64,000 nucleotides of DNA from Escherichia coli (GCF_013122565.1 NZ_CP053258.1), one strand, 5' to 3'; positions 4,869 to 43,335 are shown, numbered from the stretch's first letter. The notes: generated by a model from the sequence alone, not told the origin. Translations and numbers: made by a program.

Positions 4869-6268
4869 ACACTCGCCAGCTACTGAGCGTCGGTATCGAT
4901 ATCGGCACTACCACCACCCAGGTGATCTTCTCCCACCTGGAGCTGGTTAACCGTGCGGCGGTGTCGCAGGTGCCGCGCTACGAATTCATCAAACGCGAAA
5001 TTAGCTGGCAAAGCCCGGTGTTCTTTACCCCTGTCGATAAACAGGGTGGTTTAAAAGAAGCGGAACTGAAAACCTTAATCCTCGAGCAATATCAGGCTGC
5101 GGGCATTGCGCCGGAAAGCGTTGATTCTGGTGCCATCATCATCACCGGTGAAAGCGCGAAAACCCGCAATGCTCGCCCGGCGGTGATGGCGCTCTCCCGG
5201 TCGCTGGGCGATTTTGTCGTCGCCAGCGCCGGGCCGCATCTCGAATCCGTGATCGCCGGTCACGGTGCCGGGGCGCAAACCCTTTCTGAACAACGGCTGT
5301 GTCGGGTCCTGAATATCGATATCGGCGGTGGCACCGCGAACTACGCCCTGTTCGATGCCGGAAAAATCAGCGGTACTGCCTGCCTCAACGTCGGCGGTCG
5401 CCTGCTGGAAACCGACAGCCAGGGGCGCGTGGTTTACGCTCATAAACCGGGGCAGATGATTGTGGATGAGTGCTTCGGCGCAGGCACCGACGCCCGTTCG
5501 CTGACCGGCGCGCAGCTGGTGCAGGTTACCCGGCGGATGGCAGAGCTGATTGTCGAAGTGATTGACGGAACGCTTTCGCCGCTCGCGCAGGCATTAATGC
5601 AAACCGGTTTGCTGCCCGCAGGTGTTACGCCCGAAATCATTACGCTTTCTGGCGGCGTGGGCGAATGTTATCGCCACCAGCCCGCCGACCCGTTCTGTTT
5701 TGCCGATATTGGCCCGCTGCTGGCAACGGCGCTGCATGACCATCCGCGCCTGCGTGAGATGAACGTGCAGTTTCCGGCGCAAACCGTGCGTGCCACGGTG
5801 ATTGGCGCGGGGGCACATACCCTTTCGCTCTCTGGCAGCACAATCTGGCTTGAGGGCGTACAACTGCCGCTGCGCAATTTGCCGGTGGCGATCCCGATTG
5901 ATGAAACGGATCTGGTGGGTGCCTGGCAACAGGCGCTGATTCAGCTGGATCTTGATCCCAAAACTGACGCGTACGTGCTGGCGCTTCCCGCCTCGCTGCC
6001 TGTGCGTTACGCCGCGGTACTGACGGTCATCAACGCGTTGGTCGATTTCGTCGCGCGTTTTCCGAATCCGCATCCCCTGCTGGTGGTGGCCGGGCAGGAC
6101 TTTGGTAAAGCTCTGGGCATGTTGTTGCGCCCACAGCTACAACAACTCCCGTTGGCAGTCATTGACGAAGTGATTGTCCGCGCGGGGGACTATATCGACA
6201 TTGGTACGCCTCTTTTTGGCGGATCGGTTGTGCCGGTGACGGTGAAATCACTCGCATTTCCTTCCTGA
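4865..6268 (+). CDS. eutA: Ethanolamine ammonia-lyase reactivase EutA
   Basis: 467-aa ORF; GTG start overlapping eutH stop (GTGA); eut synteny. Confidence 0.92.
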   Translation: MNTRQLLSVGIDIGTTTTQVIFSHLELVNRAAVSQVPRYEFIKREISWQSPVFFTPVDKQGGLKEAELKTLILEQYQAAGIAPESVDSGAIIITGESAKTRNARPAVMALSRSLGDFVVASAGPHLESVIAGHGAGAQTLSEQRLCRVLNIDIGGGTANYALFDAGKISGTACLNVGGRLLETDSQGRVVYAHKPGQMIVDECFGAGTDARSLTGAQLVQVTRRMAELIVEVIDGTLSPLAQALMQTGLLPAGVTPEIITLSGGVGECYRHQPADPFCFADIGPLLATALHDHPRLREMNVQFPAQTVRATVIGAGAHTLSLSGSTIWLEGVQLPLRNLPVAIPIDETDLVGAWQQALIQLDLDPKTDAYVLALPASLPVRYAAVLTVINALVDFVARFPNPHPLLVVAGQDFGKALGMLLRPQLQQLPLAVIDEVIVRAGDYIDIGTPLFGGSVVPVTVKSLAFPS

Positions 6269-6279
6269 GGGAACGACTT

Positions 6280-7641
6280 ATGAAACTAAAGACCACATTG
6301 TTCGGCAATGTATATCAGTTTAAGGATGTAAAAGAGGTGCTGGCTAAAGCCAACGAACTGCGTTCGGGGGATGTGCTGGCGGGCGTCGCAGCGGCAAGCT
6401 CACAGGAGCGCGTGGCGGCAAAGCAGGTGTTGTCGGAAATGACCGTAGCGGACATCCGCAATAATCCGGTGATTGCCTATGAAGATGACTGCGTGACGCG
6501 GCTGATTCAGGACGATGTTAACGAAACGGCCTACAACCAGATTAAAAACTGGAGCATCAGCGAACTGCGTGAGTATGTGCTGAGCGATGAAACCAGCGTG
6601 GACGACATTGCCTTTACCCGCAAAGGGCTGACCTCGGAAGTGGTCGCGGCGGTAGCGAAGATTTGCTCCAACGCGGACCTGATTTACGGCGCGAAGAAAA
6701 TGCCGGTAATCAAAAAGGCCAATACCACCATCGGTATTCCGGGCACCTTCAGCGCCCGTTTGCAGCCAAATGACACCCGTGACGACGTGCAAAGTATCGC
6801 CGCGCAAATCTACGAAGGGCTTTCCTTCGGGGTGGGCGATGCGGTGATCGGCGTTAACCCGGTGACTGACGACGTGGAAAACTTAAGCCGCGTGCTGGAC
6901 ACCATCTATGGCGTGATCGACAAATTCAACATCCCAACTCAGGGCTGCGTACTGGCGCACGTCACCACCCAGATCGAAGCGATTCGTCGCGGCGCGCCTG
7001 GCGGACTGATTTTCCAGAGTATCTGTGGCAGCGAAAAAGGGCTGAAAGAGTTTGGCGTGGAACTGGCGATGCTCGACGAAGCGCGCGCAGTGGGTGCAGA
7101 GTTCAACCGTATCGCCGGGGAAAACTGCCTCTACTTCGAAACCGGACAAGGTTCAGCGCTATCCGCTGGCGCTAACTTCGGCGCAGACCAGGTGACGATG
7201 GAAGCACGTAACTATGGGCTGGCGCGTCATTACGATCCGTTTATCGTCAACACCGTGGTCGGCTTTATTGGGCCGGAGTATCTCTACAACGACCGCCAGA
7301 TTATCCGTGCGGGCTTAGAAGATCACTTTATGGGCAAGCTGAGCGGCATCTCTATGGGCTGTGACTGCTGTTACACCAACCACGCTGACGCTGACCAGAA
7401 CCTCAACGAAAACCTGATGATCCTGCTCGCCACCGCAGGCTGCAACTACATCATGGGGATGCCGCTGGGTGATGACATCATGCTCAACTACCAGACCACC
7501 GCATTCCACGATACCGCCACTGTGCGTCAGTTACTCAACCTGCGCCCGTCACCGGAGTTTGAACGCTGGCTGGAAAGCATGGGCATTATGGCAAACGGTC
7601 GCCTGACCAAACGGGCGGGCGATCCGTCACTGTTCTTCTGA
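6280..7641 (+). CDS. eutB: Ethanolamine ammonia-lyase heavy chain EutB
   Basis: 453-aa ORF immediately downstream of eutA; sequence matches recalled EutB. Confidence 0.95.
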   Translation: MKLKTTLFGNVYQFKDVKEVLAKANELRSGDVLAGVAAASSQERVAAKQVLSEMTVADIRNNPVIAYEDDCVTRLIQDDVNETAYNQIKNWSISELREYVLSDETSVDDIAFTRKGLTSEVVAAVAKICSNADLIYGAKKMPVIKKANTTIGIPGTFSARLQPNDTRDDVQSIAAQIYEGLSFGVGDAVIGVNPVTDDVENLSRVLDTIYGVIDKFNIPTQGCVLAHVTTQIEAIRRGAPGGLIFQSICGSEKGLKEFGVELAMLDEARAVGAEFNRIAGENCLYFETGQGSALSAGANFGADQVTMEARNYGLARHYDPFIVNTVVGFIGPEYLYNDRQIIRAGLEDHFMGKLSGISMGCDCCYTNHADADQNLNENLMILLATAGCNYIMGMPLGDDIMLNYQTTAFHDTATVRQLLNLRPSPEFERWLESMGIMANGRLTKRAGDPSLFF

Positions 7642-38427: not shown

Positions 38428-39422
38428 GCTTTATCGGCGCTGCTTTCCTGCTGCGCCTGTAACTGTTCGGTCTGGCGTTTGTATCGACGCGCCAGCACCG
38501 CACAGACCATCAATTGGATCTGATGGAAAATCATCAGGGGCAGCACCATCATACCGATCACCGATGTGGGGAACAGAATGTTTGCCATCGGGATGCCATT
38601 TGCCAGACTCTTTTTCGAACCACAAAAGACGATAGTAATTTCATCTGCTTTATTGAAGCCCAGTCGGCGTGCCATAAAGACGTTAACTACAATCACGATA
38701 GCCAGAAGAACGCAGCTGGCCACCACGATAAACAGCAATGATCCCCAGCCAACTTTATGCCAGATACCATTAACGACGGCTTCGCTGAACGCTGTATAAA
38801 CCACCAACAGAATGGACGTCTGGTCAGTTTTCGCAATCCATTTTTTATTGCGCGACACCCAGTCACCAATCCACGGCCGGGAAAGATGCCCTAACACAAA
38901 CGGCAGCAACAGTTGCAGCATAATTTTACCGACCTGCTCAAGGCTGCCCCCTGCACCGTGAACATTCATCACCAGGCCAACCAACAATGGTGAAAGGAAA
39001 ATCCCCAGCAGGCTGGATGCCGACGCAGAACAAACCGCCGCCGCGACGTTACCGCCCGCCATTGACGTGAAGGCGATTGCAGACTGCACGGTCGCGGGGA
39101 GAATGCACAAGTAGAGAAAACCGGAGTAGAGCATCGGGTCGACATTTACCGGTTTCCACCAGGCAAACAGCACGCCCAGAATCGGAAACAGCACGAAGGT
39201 GCTGCACATTACCCACAAATGCAGTCGCCAGTGACCACCGCCAGCAATAATCGCCTCACGCGACAACTTCGCGCCGTGCATAAAGAACAGCAGGGCAATC
39301 GCTGCGGTGGTCAGATTTTCAAAGAAGGGGACGAAATCGCCTCTGGCCGGAAAGAAAGAGGCCAACAACACCACCGTGATCAGGGTTAAGGTGAAAGGAT
39401 CGAGGATACGAAAAAGTTTCAT
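38424..39422 (-). CDS. yfeH: Bile acid:sodium symporter (BASS) family transporter YfeH
   Basis: 332-aa polytopic membrane ORF. Confidence 0.9.
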   Translation of the reverse strand: MKLFRILDPFTLTLITVVLLASFFPARGDFVPFFENLTTAAIALLFFMHGAKLSREAIIAGGGHWRLHLWVMCSTFVLFPILGVLFAWWKPVNVDPMLYSGFLYLCILPATVQSAIAFTSMAGGNVAAAVCSASASSLLGIFLSPLLVGLVMNVHGAGGSLEQVGKIMLQLLLPFVLGHLSRPWIGDWVSRNKKWIAKTDQTSILLVVYTAFSEAVVNGIWHKVGWGSLLFIVVASCVLLAIVIVVNVFMARRLGFNKADEITIVFCGSKKSLANGIPMANILFPTSVIGMMVLPLMIFHQIQLMVCAVLARRYKRQTEQLQAQQESSADKA

Positions 39423-39939
39423 AAAGACTCCAGATGATCGATGCTTTCATTGTGCGTTGTTCTGATTGATAAATAAAACTGAATTGCTTATCAATTTGTG
39501 CGCGAGGAGTGTGAGTGAGTTGCTCGCTCGCTTCGACTGGTTGGCAGAGCGGGGGAGGATATCCCGGATGAGACAAATAAGACGTTCGACAAGAGAATCA
39601 GGTGACTACAGAAAAAATCACAGGATGTTATTACTGCTGATGTTCATGTCGGTTTTCGCGTTATCAGAACTGGTTTTAGAACTGCTATTTAATCGATAAT
39701 GCCATTCTGCAGGAAAGCTTTACCTACTTTATTATTTGCGGTGTGGTAAAACCTGGTCACCAGAGGCAGGTTTAATACCAGACGCTGTCTTTTATCAGAT
39801 ATCCCATGTAAATAATAAATGCAATGAATATTAATTCATTATGTATTTATTTTGTGATTGTTTGGTGTTACTAGTTTGTTGGACAAATAACAACTCTAAC
39901 TAATACATAAACCTTGCATAGTGACAGAGTATCGATCTG

Positions 39940-39977
39940 AATGTTTTCAACATTGATATCAAATTGCAATTGATATC
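39940..39977. promoter_or_regulatory. Candidate operator upstream of the NupG-like transporter: inverted repeat ATGTT-ttc-AACAT followed by two TTGATATC palindromes spaced 17 bp
   Basis: Read directly: gaATGTTttcAACATTGATATCaaattgcaaTTGATATCcg, 75-110 bp upstream of the 40051 start. Confidence 0.35.
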
Positions 39978-40050
39978 CGTGGTAAAAAGTATTGGTAAAT
40001 TTGATGAATTTCCGGATATTTAAAGGGGCGGCTCAAAGACGAAGGGGAAG

Positions 40051-41307
40051 ATGGTGAATCTAAAACTACAGTTAAAAGTTCTTTCATTTCTGCAATTCTT
40101 TTTGTGGGGAAGTTGGCTCAACACATTCGGTTCTTATATGTTTATCACGCTGCGTTTTAAGGGCGAAGATATAGGCGCAGTCTACAGTACACTGGGTATC
40201 GCAGCATTAATAACATCAACGTTATTTGGTATCGTGGCCGATAAATGGATTAGTGCTAAATGGATATATGCCGCTTGTCATTTATTTGGCGCGATAACAT
40301 TATTTATCGCAGCATCGGTTACCACGCCTTCGGCAATGTTCATTGTCATTTTACTTAACTCTCTTGTGTATATGCCAACACTCGGTTTGAGTAATACAAT
40401 TTCCTATTACCGCCTACAAACAGCGGGGATGGATATTGTGACAGAATTTCCGCCAATCCGTATCTGGGGCACGATTGGATTTATTGTCGCAATGTGGGCG
40501 GTTAGCCTGGCTGGTTTTGAATTAAGTCATATGCAATTATATATCGGTGCGGCGGCTTCATTAGGCTTGAGCCTGTTCACGTTGACTTTACCAACTGTAC
40601 CAGTGGCGAAATCTAACCAGGCGCAAGGAATGATAGATGTTCTCGGATTGCGTGCATTTACACTGTTTAAAAACAGCAAAATGGCGATTTTCTTTATCTT
40701 TGCCATGCTGCTCGGGGCAGAGTTACAAATTACCGGGATGTTTGGTAATACATTTCTCCACAGCTTTGAGAGCGTTCCAGAGTTTACCAATAGTTTTGTT
40801 GTTACCCATGCTTCTATTCTGTTATCAATTTCTCAGATATCCGAAGTCTGTTTCATTCTTGCCATTCCTTTTTTCCTGAAAAAATACGGTATCAAAAATG
40901 TCATGCTGATGAGCATGGTGGCCTGGATGCTGCGTTTTGGTTTATTCGCTTATGGCGATCCTTCATTCGGTGGTACCATTCTGTTAATTCTTTCGATGAT
41001 TGTTTATGGCTGTGCTTTTGACTTCTTCAATATATCTGGCTCGGTATTTGTTGAACAAGAAGTTGATCCATCGATTCGTAACAGCGCTCAGGGCGTTTTC
41101 CTGATGATGGCCAATGGTTTTGGTTGTATTCTGGGCGGTTTTATCAGTGGTAAAGTCGTCGATTATTTAACAACGGATGGCAATCCACAGTGGTCAACCA
41201 TTTGGCTGGTATTTGCCGGATATTCACTGGTTCTGGCTCTCGCATTTATGGTGTTGTTTAAATATAAACACAACGGTAACCCGACAACGTCCGGTCATTT
41301 CGCCTGA
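40051..41307 (+). CDS. Nucleoside:H+ symporter, NHS family (NupG/XapB paralog)
   Basis: 418-aa 12-TM-like ORF; near-collinear similarity to recalled NupG and to XapB encoded 2 kb downstream (e.g. LQFFLWGSWL, FPPIRIWGTIGFI, GCAFDFFNISGSVFVEQEV). AT-rich codon usage. Confidence 0.85.
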   Translation: MVNLKLQLKVLSFLQFFLWGSWLNTFGSYMFITLRFKGEDIGAVYSTLGIAALITSTLFGIVADKWISAKWIYAACHLFGAITLFIAASVTTPSAMFIVILLNSLVYMPTLGLSNTISYYRLQTAGMDIVTEFPPIRIWGTIGFIVAMWAVSLAGFELSHMQLYIGAAASLGLSLFTLTLPTVPVAKSNQAQGMIDVLGLRAFTLFKNSKMAIFFIFAMLLGAELQITGMFGNTFLHSFESVPEFTNSFVVTHASILLSISQISEVCFILAIPFFLKKYGIKNVMLMSMVAWMLRFGLFAYGDPSFGGTILLILSMIVYGCAFDFFNISGSVFVEQEVDPSIRNSAQGVFLMMANGFGCILGGFISGKVVDYLTTDGNPQWSTIWLVFAGYSLVLALAFMVLFKYKHNGNPTTSGHFA

Positions 41308-41361
41308 TACGGAGTTTATCAAAATTAATAATGTTTTATAGGATTCGCAAAAGAGGAAGTT

Positions 41362-42273
41362 ATGGCAAATCAATTGTATAACCAGTGTCGGGTTTATTGT
41401 GCACCCTGGCGATTAGATGCTTTAAATTTAAATGATATCATTGATCAATGGATTGACGAGGGGCTGTTGCCGCCCCTGATCCATACTTTTCTTCCATATC
41501 GCGATGATGCCGGTGCCTCCAGTGAAGAAGAGATTTTTGTTAACGATGTCGCGAATATGGATAACAGTGTTGGGGTTATCGGTTATTTCGATGGTGGAAC
41601 CTATGATTCCGGTTATGCATGGGCTTTAGGGATGCCTGTTCACCTGGTAACGACAGACTTTCTTATATGGGCAGCGGGGAATTCTTCAGAGTTTTATCCT
41701 ATAAGTAAGCTGATGAATTATGTGGCAAAAGTGGTTTCTGTGTCAGATTCCGATACCAGTATCAGCAATTATCGTGAACAAACCGACGATATCATCAAGC
41801 GTGCGTTGCAAATTTTTCAACAAAATTTAATCGCCGACTTCGGCACGACGATTAATCCAGCAGTACCGGTTACTCCATTGCCGATTGAGTATGACTACTA
41901 TATTGATCCTAACTTTATGTATACCGAACCCTCTCGGGACTTACTGGTGAAGATCAAAGATGCGATCATTAGTGCAGGTAAGACTTTCATCGTTGGCGAC
42001 AACATGAATGATATTGCGACTGATATTGATAACTTAAGAAAATCCAGACAGGCCATCTTTTATTCCGATACCTTTGAGCCGAATGTTGACACCGGCATTA
42101 TGAATGGTATTGCCTATGCATTAGGACAGCAATCGATTATTTATTGTAGCAAGCAACAAAAATATCAATCTGCGCTCGCGACAGATTATTTAAATTTAAT
42201 GATTACCTGGTCGTCAACGGTGGCGCATTCATTTGCGGAACTTGAAACATTGATTGGTAACACAGAAAAATAA
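41362..42273 (+). CDS. Hypothetical protein with two tandem nucleoside 2-deoxyribosyltransferase-like repeats
   Basis: 303-aa ORF with RBS agaggaag; internal repeat ([DS]G..[YI]A[WY]ALG at ~aa 80-95 and ~aa 255-270) resembling the NDT/DNPH1 D-x-G-..-E-x-G-Y-A-x-A-x-G-K-P-V motif. Fold assignment is inference. Confidence 0.6.
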   Translation: MANQLYNQCRVYCAPWRLDALNLNDIIDQWIDEGLLPPLIHTFLPYRDDAGASSEEEIFVNDVANMDNSVGVIGYFDGGTYDSGYAWALGMPVHLVTTDFLIWAAGNSSEFYPISKLMNYVAKVVSVSDSDTSISNYREQTDDIIKRALQIFQQNLIADFGTTINPAVPVTPLPIEYDYYIDPNFMYTEPSRDLLVKIKDAIISAGKTFIVGDNMNDIATDIDNLRKSRQAIFYSDTFEPNVDTGIMNGIAYALGQQSIIYCSKQQKYQSALATDYLNLMITWSSTVAHSFAELETLIGNTEK

Positions 42274-42284
42274 TAGTTAATTTT

Positions 42285-42330
42285 ACTGATTATCAGGTGA
42301 GTGATTGCCTGATAATCAGCTTTTTGTTAG
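42285..42330 (+). terminator. Rho-independent terminator after the 303-aa gene
   Basis: Perfect 12-bp inverted repeat CTGATTATCAGG...CCTGATAATCAG followed by ctttttg. Confidence 0.65.
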
Positions 42331-42501
42331 CCACCAAAGAAAAATATACTGCCGTTATATTTCTCTGCCGGGGAACGATATGATCGATTTCAAAATTATA
42401 TTGAATATCTCTGGAAAATGTATTGGTCACTCGCGACTTTTTCTCGCTATAAAAAAATGTGACTCAGATCTAACGCATAATGCTTATTACAAGGACTTGC
42501 C

Positions 42502-43335
42502 ATGACCCAATCTCATTTTTCACAAAACCCGTGGTATTGCGCAGATATCATTCGTCGTCATAAACCAGACTTTACCCCACGCGTTGCGTTTATTTTGGGT
42601 TCGGGACTGGGAGCGCTGGCTGAACAAATAGAAGACGCAGTTGCCATTTCTTATAGCGATTTGCCGGGGTTTCCGGTGAGCACCGTACACGGCCATGCAG
42701 GAGAGTTGGTCCTCGGCGTGCTTTCTGGTGTGCCTGTAGCCTGCATGAAAGGTCGCGGTCATTTTTATGAGGGCCGGGGAATGACTGTCATGACTGATGC
42801 TATTCGCACGTTCAAGTTGCTGGGCTGTGAATTGTTGTTCTGCACTAACGCTGCAGGTTCGCTTCGCCCGGAAGTAGGGGCGGGTAGTCTGGTTGCGCTG
42901 AAAGATCACATTAATACGATGCCAGGCACACCGATGACAGGCCTTAATGATGAGCGTTTTGGTGAACGTTTTTTCTCATTAGCGAATGCTTACGATGCTG
43001 ATTACCGCGCCGTTTTACAAACCGTCGCGCATGAAGAAGGTTTTCCGCTGACAGAAGGGGTTTTTGTTTCTTATCCGGGGCCGAACTTCGAAACGGCGGC
43101 AGAAATTCGCATGATGCAGCTGTTTGGTGGCGACGTAGTAGGTATGTCTGTAGTGCCTGAAGTGATTAGCGCACGTCATTGCGAAATGAAAGTCGTTGCC
43201 GTGTCAGCAATAACCAACATGGCGGAAGGCTTAAGCGATGTGAAATTGTCGCATGCCCAAACCCTGGCTGCAGCAGAGTTATCACGACAAAACTTTATTA
43301 ATTTGATTTGCGGATTCTTACGCAAAATCGCCTGA
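42502..43335 (+). CDS. xapA: Xanthosine phosphorylase (purine nucleoside phosphorylase II) XapA
   Basis: 277-aa PNP-family ORF; xapAB-xapR synteny. Confidence 0.93.
   Translation: MTQSHFSQNPWYCADIIRRHKPDFTPRVAFILGSGLGALAEQIEDAVAISYSDLPGFPVSTVHGHAGELVLGVLSGVPVACMKGRGHFYEGRGMTVMTDAIRTFKLLGCELLFCTNAAGSLRPEVGAGSLVALKDHINTMPGTPMTGLNDERFGERFFSLANAYDADYRAVLQTVAHEEGFPLTEGVFVSYPGPNFETAAEIRMMQLFGGDVVGMSVVPEVISARHCEMKVVAVSAITNMAEGLSDVKLSHAQTLAAAELSRQNFINLICGFLRKIA

Follow-up and report, generated by a model that had tools for sequence, protein, structure and literature searches.

Nucleoside 2-deoxyribosyltransferases (NDTs; EC 2.4.2.6) are workhorse biocatalysts for the synthesis of nucleoside analogues, and to our knowledge they have been described so far only as homo-oligomers with active sites across two chains. 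The known enzymes are chains of 135-167 amino acids (aa) that pair up as homodimers in which both composite sites are identical, and assemble into dimers, tetramers or hexamers. Catalysis by NDTs has the dimer as its basic unit: each site is assembled from a Tyr, two Asp and the nucleophilic Glu contributed by one chain and the Asn and Met (or Tyr) of the other chain's NLM motif, and the partner-chain residues listed for the catalytic site are Asn130*/Asn127* and Met129* (PMC12372993). Here we describe a gene, NDT2, at positions 41362 to 42273 of a 64,000-nucleotide stretch of Escherichia coli DNA (GCF_013122565.1, NZ_CP053258.1), hereafter called the window. A catalytic unit built from two NDT folds is common to the known enzymes and NDT2, but whereas the former are homo-oligomers of about 140-170-aa chains, NDT2 is one chain (303 aa in the window, 309 aa when intact). 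In the intact form, two folds are fused in about 309 aa with a linker of about 50 residues, and only one site appears to be retained.

We propose that NDT2 represents a family of single-chain, tandem NDT-fold enzymes that would have arisen by fused duplication with decay of one composite site, that the family would swap bases on deoxyribose, and that the window copy is probably inactive. We give this reading a probability of about 0.6. A search of the literature found no account of the tandem architecture, of the asymmetric decay of one site, or of an association with purine nucleoside phosphorylase (PNP) and DeoC.

The first-pass annotation of the gene, made from the DNA alone, had quoted two repeat segments in a 303-aa protein and read them as an internal duplication of the NDT fold. 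Both segments are present, and PF05014 (Nuc_deoxyrib_tr), the family it had named, matches the window protein twice, weakly (aa 41-99, E 0.0059; aa 219-280, E 0.024). Single-sequence searches with the window protein gave nothing relevant in NCBIfam and, with phmmer against the PDB, noise only. Twenty-six relatives, nearly all of 309-310 aa, came from a search of 5.8 billion proteins; PF05014 was matched by 16/16 close relatives at E<=1e-3 and, at the looser limit of E<=0.1, by 19 of 34 C-halves. When the N-half was aligned to the C-half with hhalign, the match was weak with just 16 close sequences (E 0.0017, 42 columns), and the duplication became decisive only once these were replaced by a 110-sequence family alignment, which gave a probability of 97.7% and an E of 1.3e-12 over 120 aligned columns. 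The 110 sequences are two-domain representatives; they come from the 739 hits at E<=1e-3 that were obtained when 1.84 billion cluster representatives were searched. This self-alignment bears out the duplication. Each domain also matched the solved NDTs as a profile, with a best E of 2.7e-8 for the N-domain (7M5H) and E values of 1.1e-6 (7O62), then 3e-4 and 1e-3, for the C-domain alone. The gene encodes an internally duplicated NDT fold with 13-18% sequence identity to solved NDTs, arranged as follows.

41362..42273, + strand: NDT2 open reading frame, tandem NDT-like; the 303-aa deletion allele, intact alleles being 309 aa
41362..41751, + strand: N-terminal NDT domain, window aa 1 to about 130, with a profile match to solved NDTs
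41752..41883, + strand: inter-domain linker, a long helix and then an extended segment (helix 148-166 and coil to 184 in the AlphaFold2 model of the intact allele P0003)
41884..42270, + strand: C-terminal degenerate NDT domain, window aa 175-303

The protein has the alpha/beta fold of NDTs, which is shown for the C-domain, while the N-domain is placed with the NDTs by sequence. Strand beta1 is QLYNQ in the N-domain, bearing the conserved Tyr6, and YDYYID in the C-domain; the elements that had been taken for beta1, VYCAPW and TFIVGD, are not beta1, the latter being beta2 of the C-domain. Two-domain structural relatives in AFDB, known by automatic names only, reached template modeling (TM) scores of 0.74-0.91 and came from Citrobacter, Lachnospiraceae, Deinococcus-Thermus, Streptomyces, Thermomicrobiales and bacteria of the candidate phyla radiation. 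The NCBI name for homologs in E. coli, E. albertii and Citrobacter is 'nucleoside 2-deoxyribosyltransferase', a label that is correct for fold and ancestry.

We then located the residues that make up an NDT site. They are listed below with residue numbers of the 309-aa form unless otherwise stated.

41377-41379, + strand: Tyr6, N-domain, aligned with EfPDT Tyr5
41545-41547, + strand: Asp62, N-domain, aligned with EfPDT Asp60
41605-41607, + strand: Asp82, N-domain, aligned with EfPDT Asp80
42088..42126, + strand: degenerate motif DTGIMNGIAYALG of the C-domain, with Met at the Glu-equivalent position in the HMMER alignment to DpNDT and in hhalign of N-half against C-half
42193..42201, + strand: Asn-Leu-Met motif of the C-domain (N278-L279-M280 in the window, N284-M286 when intact), aligned with the NLM/NPM of DpNDT and LhPDT

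In HMMER alignments, Glu88 of the intact N-domain falls on EfPDT Glu86, and Asn284 and Met286 correspond to DpNDT Asn127* and Met129*. The cis Tyr/Asp/Asp/Glu set of EfPDT (7M5H), DpNDT (7O62), BpNDT (6EVS), LlNDT (1F8X) and LhPDT (1S2D) is shared with the N-domain of NDT2, and their NLM motif with its C-domain. Counts of the same residue among the 110 relatives were 103 for Y6, 109 for D62, 110 for D82, 110 for G84, 110 for E88, 108 for N284 and 107 for M286, and the motif D-x-G-x-x-x-E-x-G was present in 110/110. The cis Tyr and both Asp (Tyr6, Asp62 and Asp82, conserved in 103-110 of the 110) are kept in the window N-domain. At the Glu-equivalent column of the C-domain the relatives have Leu (61), Ile (26) or Met (8) and not a single Glu, and the following column holds Gln (51) plus various others; the claim that the second repeat lacks the catalytic acid was therefore right, both for the window, which has Met, and for the family at large. 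The N-domain is without an NLM motif, its equivalent segment across the family being D/S-P/K-[LIV].

By these alignments the family retains exactly one complete cis-plus-trans set of residues, divided between the two domains, and has lost both halves of the reciprocal site. We suggest that the family goes back to the duplication and fusion of an ancestral NDT gene, after which one of the two composite sites decayed. The N-domain would give Tyr6, Asp62, Asp82 and Glu88 in cis and the C-domain would give Asn284 and Met286 in trans over a pseudo-twofold interface, a geometry that we infer from homology with NDT dimers; the reciprocal site would be dead on both sides, through Leu, Ile or Met in place of Glu in the C-domain and the substituted NLM segment of the N-domain. 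One composite active site per chain is predicted for the intact family, so that at this level conservation agrees with the first-pass description of a single-chain pseudo-dimer in which one site is active and the other degenerate. The family profile also recovered P0120 (L026 4915-5907, GCA_025491055.1, a metagenome assembly), in which the motifs of the two halves are both complete (YFAGPLF / VYWSGPVF, D-x-G-T-x-W-E-x-G-Y-A, EMGYA / EVGYA and NIM / NLM). It shares the two-domain fused architecture with NDT2 but should have two live sites rather than one, and it looks like the undecayed ancestral state of the fusion.

At position 10 (window 41389-41391), within the beta1-alpha1 loop, most family members carry Arg or Lys: the segment reads I-Y-x-A-x-[RK]-L-F, as opposed to A-G-P-L-F in classical NDTs.

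The gene had been linked to nucleoside metabolism from its position behind a transporter gene, and the neighborhoods of its relatives are in keeping with that. Relatives that are 37–54% identical, mostly from Clostridia, usually lie beside genes for PNP, DeoC, DeoB and nucleoside transporters. Identities to NDT2 and gene content are given below.

L003/L004 (metagenomes), 50% identity: DeoR, NDT2, DeoC, trimeric-type PNP, CUT1-type ABC transporter
L005 (metagenome), 47%: Crp, PNP, ABC transporter, NDT2, phosphopentomutase, DeoC
L009 (metagenome), 44%: Crp, PNP, DeoC, ABC transporter, NDT2
Enterocloster and Clostridiales 1_7_47FAA, 44%: PNP, ABC transporter, NDT2
Lachnospiraceae M18-1, 41-42%: DeoR, NDT2, DeoD-type PNP, DeoC, 395-aa open reading frame, ABC transporter ATPase and two permeases
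Clostridiales metagenome-assembled genome, 54%: sugar ABC transporter, NDT2, RihC-like nucleoside hydrolase, CytR-like repressor
Citrobacter, about 80%: NupG-type permease, NDT2, adenine deaminase
E. coli and E. albertii, 92-100%: permease, NDT2, then xapA

Three unrelated types of transporter and two unrelated PNP families thus accompany NDT2, with DeoC and DeoB. Because genes for PNP, DeoC, DeoB and transporters recur around it, we assign NDT2 to nucleoside catabolism, and this guilt by association makes a strong case, albeit one of gene context, that 2'-deoxynucleosides would be what is catabolized. In a Clostridiales metagenome-assembled genome, a patatin-like phospholipase with weak matches to CBASS and anti-phage phospholipase models is encoded some 3 kb away from the NDT2 homolog (L012 8980-10023, - strand); it is probably unrelated to it.

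We propose an NDT-type double displacement, in which Glu88 would attack C1' of a 2'-deoxynucleoside to give a deoxyribosyl-enzyme intermediate that is then resolved by an acceptor base or water. NDT2 would move deoxyribose from imported deoxynucleosides that the local PNP cannot cleave onto a 6-oxopurine; PNP (XapA in the window) would free deoxyribose 1-phosphate and restore the base, and phosphopentomutase (DeoB) and DeoC would complete catabolism. The E. coli deo operon (the thymidine phosphorylase DeoA, with DeoD, DeoB and DeoC) offers a comparison, since the Clostridial clusters likewise hold PNP, DeoB, DeoC, a transporter and a DeoR-type regulator. NDT2 takes the slot that a pyrimidine nucleoside phosphorylase has in the deo operon and would in effect replace that enzyme, although the reaction we infer for it is base exchange and not phosphorolysis. 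We further put forward, tentatively and as a possibility with the odds against it, that NDT2 constitutes a new enzyme class: a single-chain NDT whose base swap is the entry step of deoxynucleoside catabolism, transferring deoxyribose from pyrimidine, adenine or modified-base deoxynucleosides (e.g. of phage or damaged DNA) onto a 6-oxopurine recycled catalytically by the adjacent PNP, the two enzymes together replacing pyrimidine nucleoside phosphorylase both in deo-like operons of Clostridia from the gut and in the mobile module that carries permease and NDT2 in Enterobacteria.

The family might instead consist of N-glycoside hydrolases, an explanation that we consider unlikely but that has several points in its favor. 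Such an enzyme would be either DNPH1/Rcl-like, turning a deoxynucleoside monophosphate into base and deoxyribose-5-phosphate for DeoC, or a deoxynucleoside hydrolase. DNPH1/Rcl (2'-deoxynucleoside 5'-phosphate N-hydrolase) and the CMP hydrolases MilB/BlsM are of the same superfamily and fold as NDT2, work by a Glu nucleophile and have a dimer as catalytic unit; they act on nucleotides, whereas the context of NDT2 is nucleoside uptake plus PNP. A hydrolase would suit the observations that NDTs themselves hydrolyze slowly when no acceptor is present, that DeoC occurs in several clusters (L003, L009 and L015) without a nearby phosphopentomutase, and that Arg or Lys is common in the beta1-alpha1 loop. 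Against it, the adjoining transporters are importers of nucleosides or sugars, not of nucleotides, and PNP, present in nearly every cluster, would be needless if the sugar phosphate were made directly. The sequence and fold matches to bona fide NDTs are also far stronger than those to Rcl or MilB, and the NLM motif typical of transferases is retained. We accordingly prefer a base-swapping transferase to a hydrolase for the family.

The window copy differs from its intact relatives at the very motif that defines the site. When its DNA is aligned to that of the E. coli strains LHM10-1 and IAI39, the window NDT2 shows an 18-bp in-frame deletion.

41610..41623, + strand: deletion junction, aligned between 41613 and 41614, its position being ambiguous within the surviving repeat copy GGTTATGCATGGG

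The residues lost, by protein alignment, are GCAWEV (Gly84-Val89), which include the invariant Gly84 and the nucleophile Glu88, so that relatives read YDSGCAWEVGYAWALGMPV, the canonical D-x-G-x-x-x-E-x-G-Y-A NDT motif, and the window reads YDSGYAWALGMPV. Direct repeats, GGTT(G/A)TGCATGGG, flank the deletion in the copies GGTTGTGCATGGG and GGTTATGCATGGG, a sequence arrangement that bears the signature of replication slippage. The N-domain PF05014 score is 43.5 bits (E 4.1e-11) for the intact allele P0003 versus 17.2 bits (E 0.0059) for the window allele, whose match is weak because the core of the motif is deleted. At this motif the window allele reads DSGYAW, and the Asp that the first-pass annotation had placed at the catalytic Glu position of repeat 1 is not a feature of the family but a by-product of the deletion; it is Asp82. 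A nucleophile is found in neither domain of the window allele, the Glu of the N-domain being deleted and the C-domain having Met at the equivalent position, and it has no counterpart of the catalytic Glu98 of LlNDT, Glu86 of EfPDT or Glu100 of DpNDT. The picture of one active and one degenerate site, sound for the family, is for this reason inapplicable to the window allele.

The identical deletion, giving the 303-aa form, is present in GCA_018578885.1 / SRR11451197, where 2 further bases (42240 and 42247) depart from the window sequence, one difference being synonymous (E293) and the other giving T296 in the window versus Ala. We considered whether the deletion was an assembly artefact and ruled this out on the strength of that second genome, which shares the deletion but not the two other bases; for the same reason the deletion is inherited in a small lineage of at least two distinct genomes. 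It is also recent, because the remainder of the protein matches the family consensus and has no further disabling change.

Six residues are gone from the start of the active-site helix (helix 83-94 in the AlphaFold2 model of intact P0003). Because the invariant Gly84 and Glu88 have been removed and this helix has been shortened, the 303-aa allele most probably represents a loss of function and is inactive. We think it very unlikely that the allele still works by using Asp82, which the deletion has moved beside G-Y-A, as the nucleophile in place of Glu88. Its reading frame is intact, its remaining sequence is consensus-like, and at least two closely related genomes carry it. Against this, Gly84 and Glu88 are invariant in 110/110 relatives, the active-site helix has lost its first six residues, and Asp82 would be consumed although it has a conserved role of its own, as EfPDT Asp80 does. 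The fall of the Pfam score from 43.5 to 17.2 bits, the mark of slippage rather than selection on the deletion, and the neighboring yfeN, likewise a deletion remnant in this lineage, also argue for a dead allele. The window copy is named like its intact relatives yet is without the nucleophile, and annotation should treat it with caution, as a probable loss-of-function allele.

That the protein is a non-catalytic nucleoside or nucleotide binder or sensor (SLOG/LOG/TIR-like), or an anti-phage component, would suit a window allele without any nucleophile, but we regard it as highly improbable: SLOG/LOG-like binding, raised in the first-pass annotation, is disfavored for the family because the NDT catalytic residues are all kept invariant, the window loss is a recent, lineage-restricted deletion, the neighbors are catabolic enzymes and transporters rather than effectors, and a PADLOC search gave no model match, which led us to reject a defense role, with no TIR, SLOG, LOG, NADase or anti-phage profile match, defense-system model or context found.

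Several observations weigh against the proposal of a single-chain, base-swapping NDT family with an inactive window copy. In E. coli, which already possesses deoA, cdd and deoD, little is gained from a simple pyrimidine relay, and what the enzyme really acts on may be some unusual or modified deoxynucleoside. The Arg or Lys of the beta1-alpha1 loop could contact an anionic group, as on a nucleotide substrate. The predicted TM-score (pTM) of 0.85 supports a fixed arrangement of the domains in the model but not specifically that of an NDT dimer. In the deletion allele, Asp82 now stands two residues ahead of G-Y-A and may confer residual activity. The wider family is not functionally uniform, because its distant members lie in different clusters: P0046 (L019 5001-5951 / L020 3321-4271, metagenome) accompanies genes for radical SAM/SPASM, Nmad3, thymidylate kinase and UDG-family proteins and a cytosine/purine permease, a cluster that looks like a modified-nucleotide pathway instead of catabolism, and another distant two-domain member adjoins a PfkB kinase. 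Finally, the literature search found no characterized member, no published assay and no paper on the family.

Should the proposal be true, NDT2 would show what becomes of an obligately dimeric active site once the gene is fused: asymmetric decay, and a clean split into a cis and a trans domain. It would provide a simpler scaffold for engineering, in which the two halves of the site can be mutated independently, and it would hint at an undescribed route of deoxynucleosides into the PNP / DeoB / DeoC pathway in gut bacteria.

The setting of NDT2 in the window is enterobacterial, with the gene order ligA, ypeB, yfeH (- strand), permease, NDT2, hairpin, xapA, xapB and xapR. The features next to NDT2 are these.

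40051..41307, + strand: NupG/XapB-family nucleoside:H+ permease (TIGR00889, E 2e-190), directly upstream of NDT2
42286..42329, + strand: strong terminator-like hairpin of 15 pairs (42286-42319) with a T-run, 13 bases past the NDT2 stop
42502..43335, + strand: xapA, xanthosine / 6-oxopurine nucleoside phosphorylase (TIGR01699, E 6e-154, above cutoff), annotated xapA in homologous genomes

NDT2 begins with ATG, 5' of which AGGAAG forms the ribosome-binding site. It does lie directly downstream of a nucleoside transporter gene, as had been noted, and this permease is its co-transferred partner. The hairpin, to judge by its sequence, would close the permease-NDT2 unit. Rfam, scanned over 39300-42600, gave neither a riboswitch nor a leader RNA, and a promoter scan gave scores no better than those of shuffled sequence and no usable promoter call.

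Among 5,426 complete E. coli genomes, only 15 have the permease-NDT2 pair, in every case with yfeH on one side and xapA on the other. The GC content is 0.418 for the permease and 0.411 for NDT2, compared with 0.519 for the whole window. This low GC and the fact that the closest non-enterobacterial relatives are Clostridia are both consistent with horizontal acquisition, and 40051-42273 looks like a module of two genes that was taken up horizontally and came to lie upstream of xapA. In Citrobacter (L023-L025, gene 6001-6933) the pair stands beside a gene for a 590-aa adenine deaminase rather than xapA, L025 being without a called permease. The permease-NDT2 pair behaves as a mobile module landing beside purine-catabolic genes.

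The intergenic region 39423-40050 contains what is left of yfeN, a gene for a Tsx-family outer-membrane channel, of which just the two ends survive at about 39669-39797; compared with E. coli IAI39, about 642 bp of its interior (L002 4332-4973) have been lost. In K-12, yfeH and yfeN have the LysR gene yfeR between them; it is missing from the window and from LHM10-1 and IAI39, two carriers of the island whose annotations were inspected. We considered whether the Tsx/OmpK gene of IAI39-type genomes was part of the island and rejected this, the gene being the resident orthologue of yfeN, with 86% identity to K-12 YfeN; in IAI39 the yfeN gene carries the annotation 'OmpK'.

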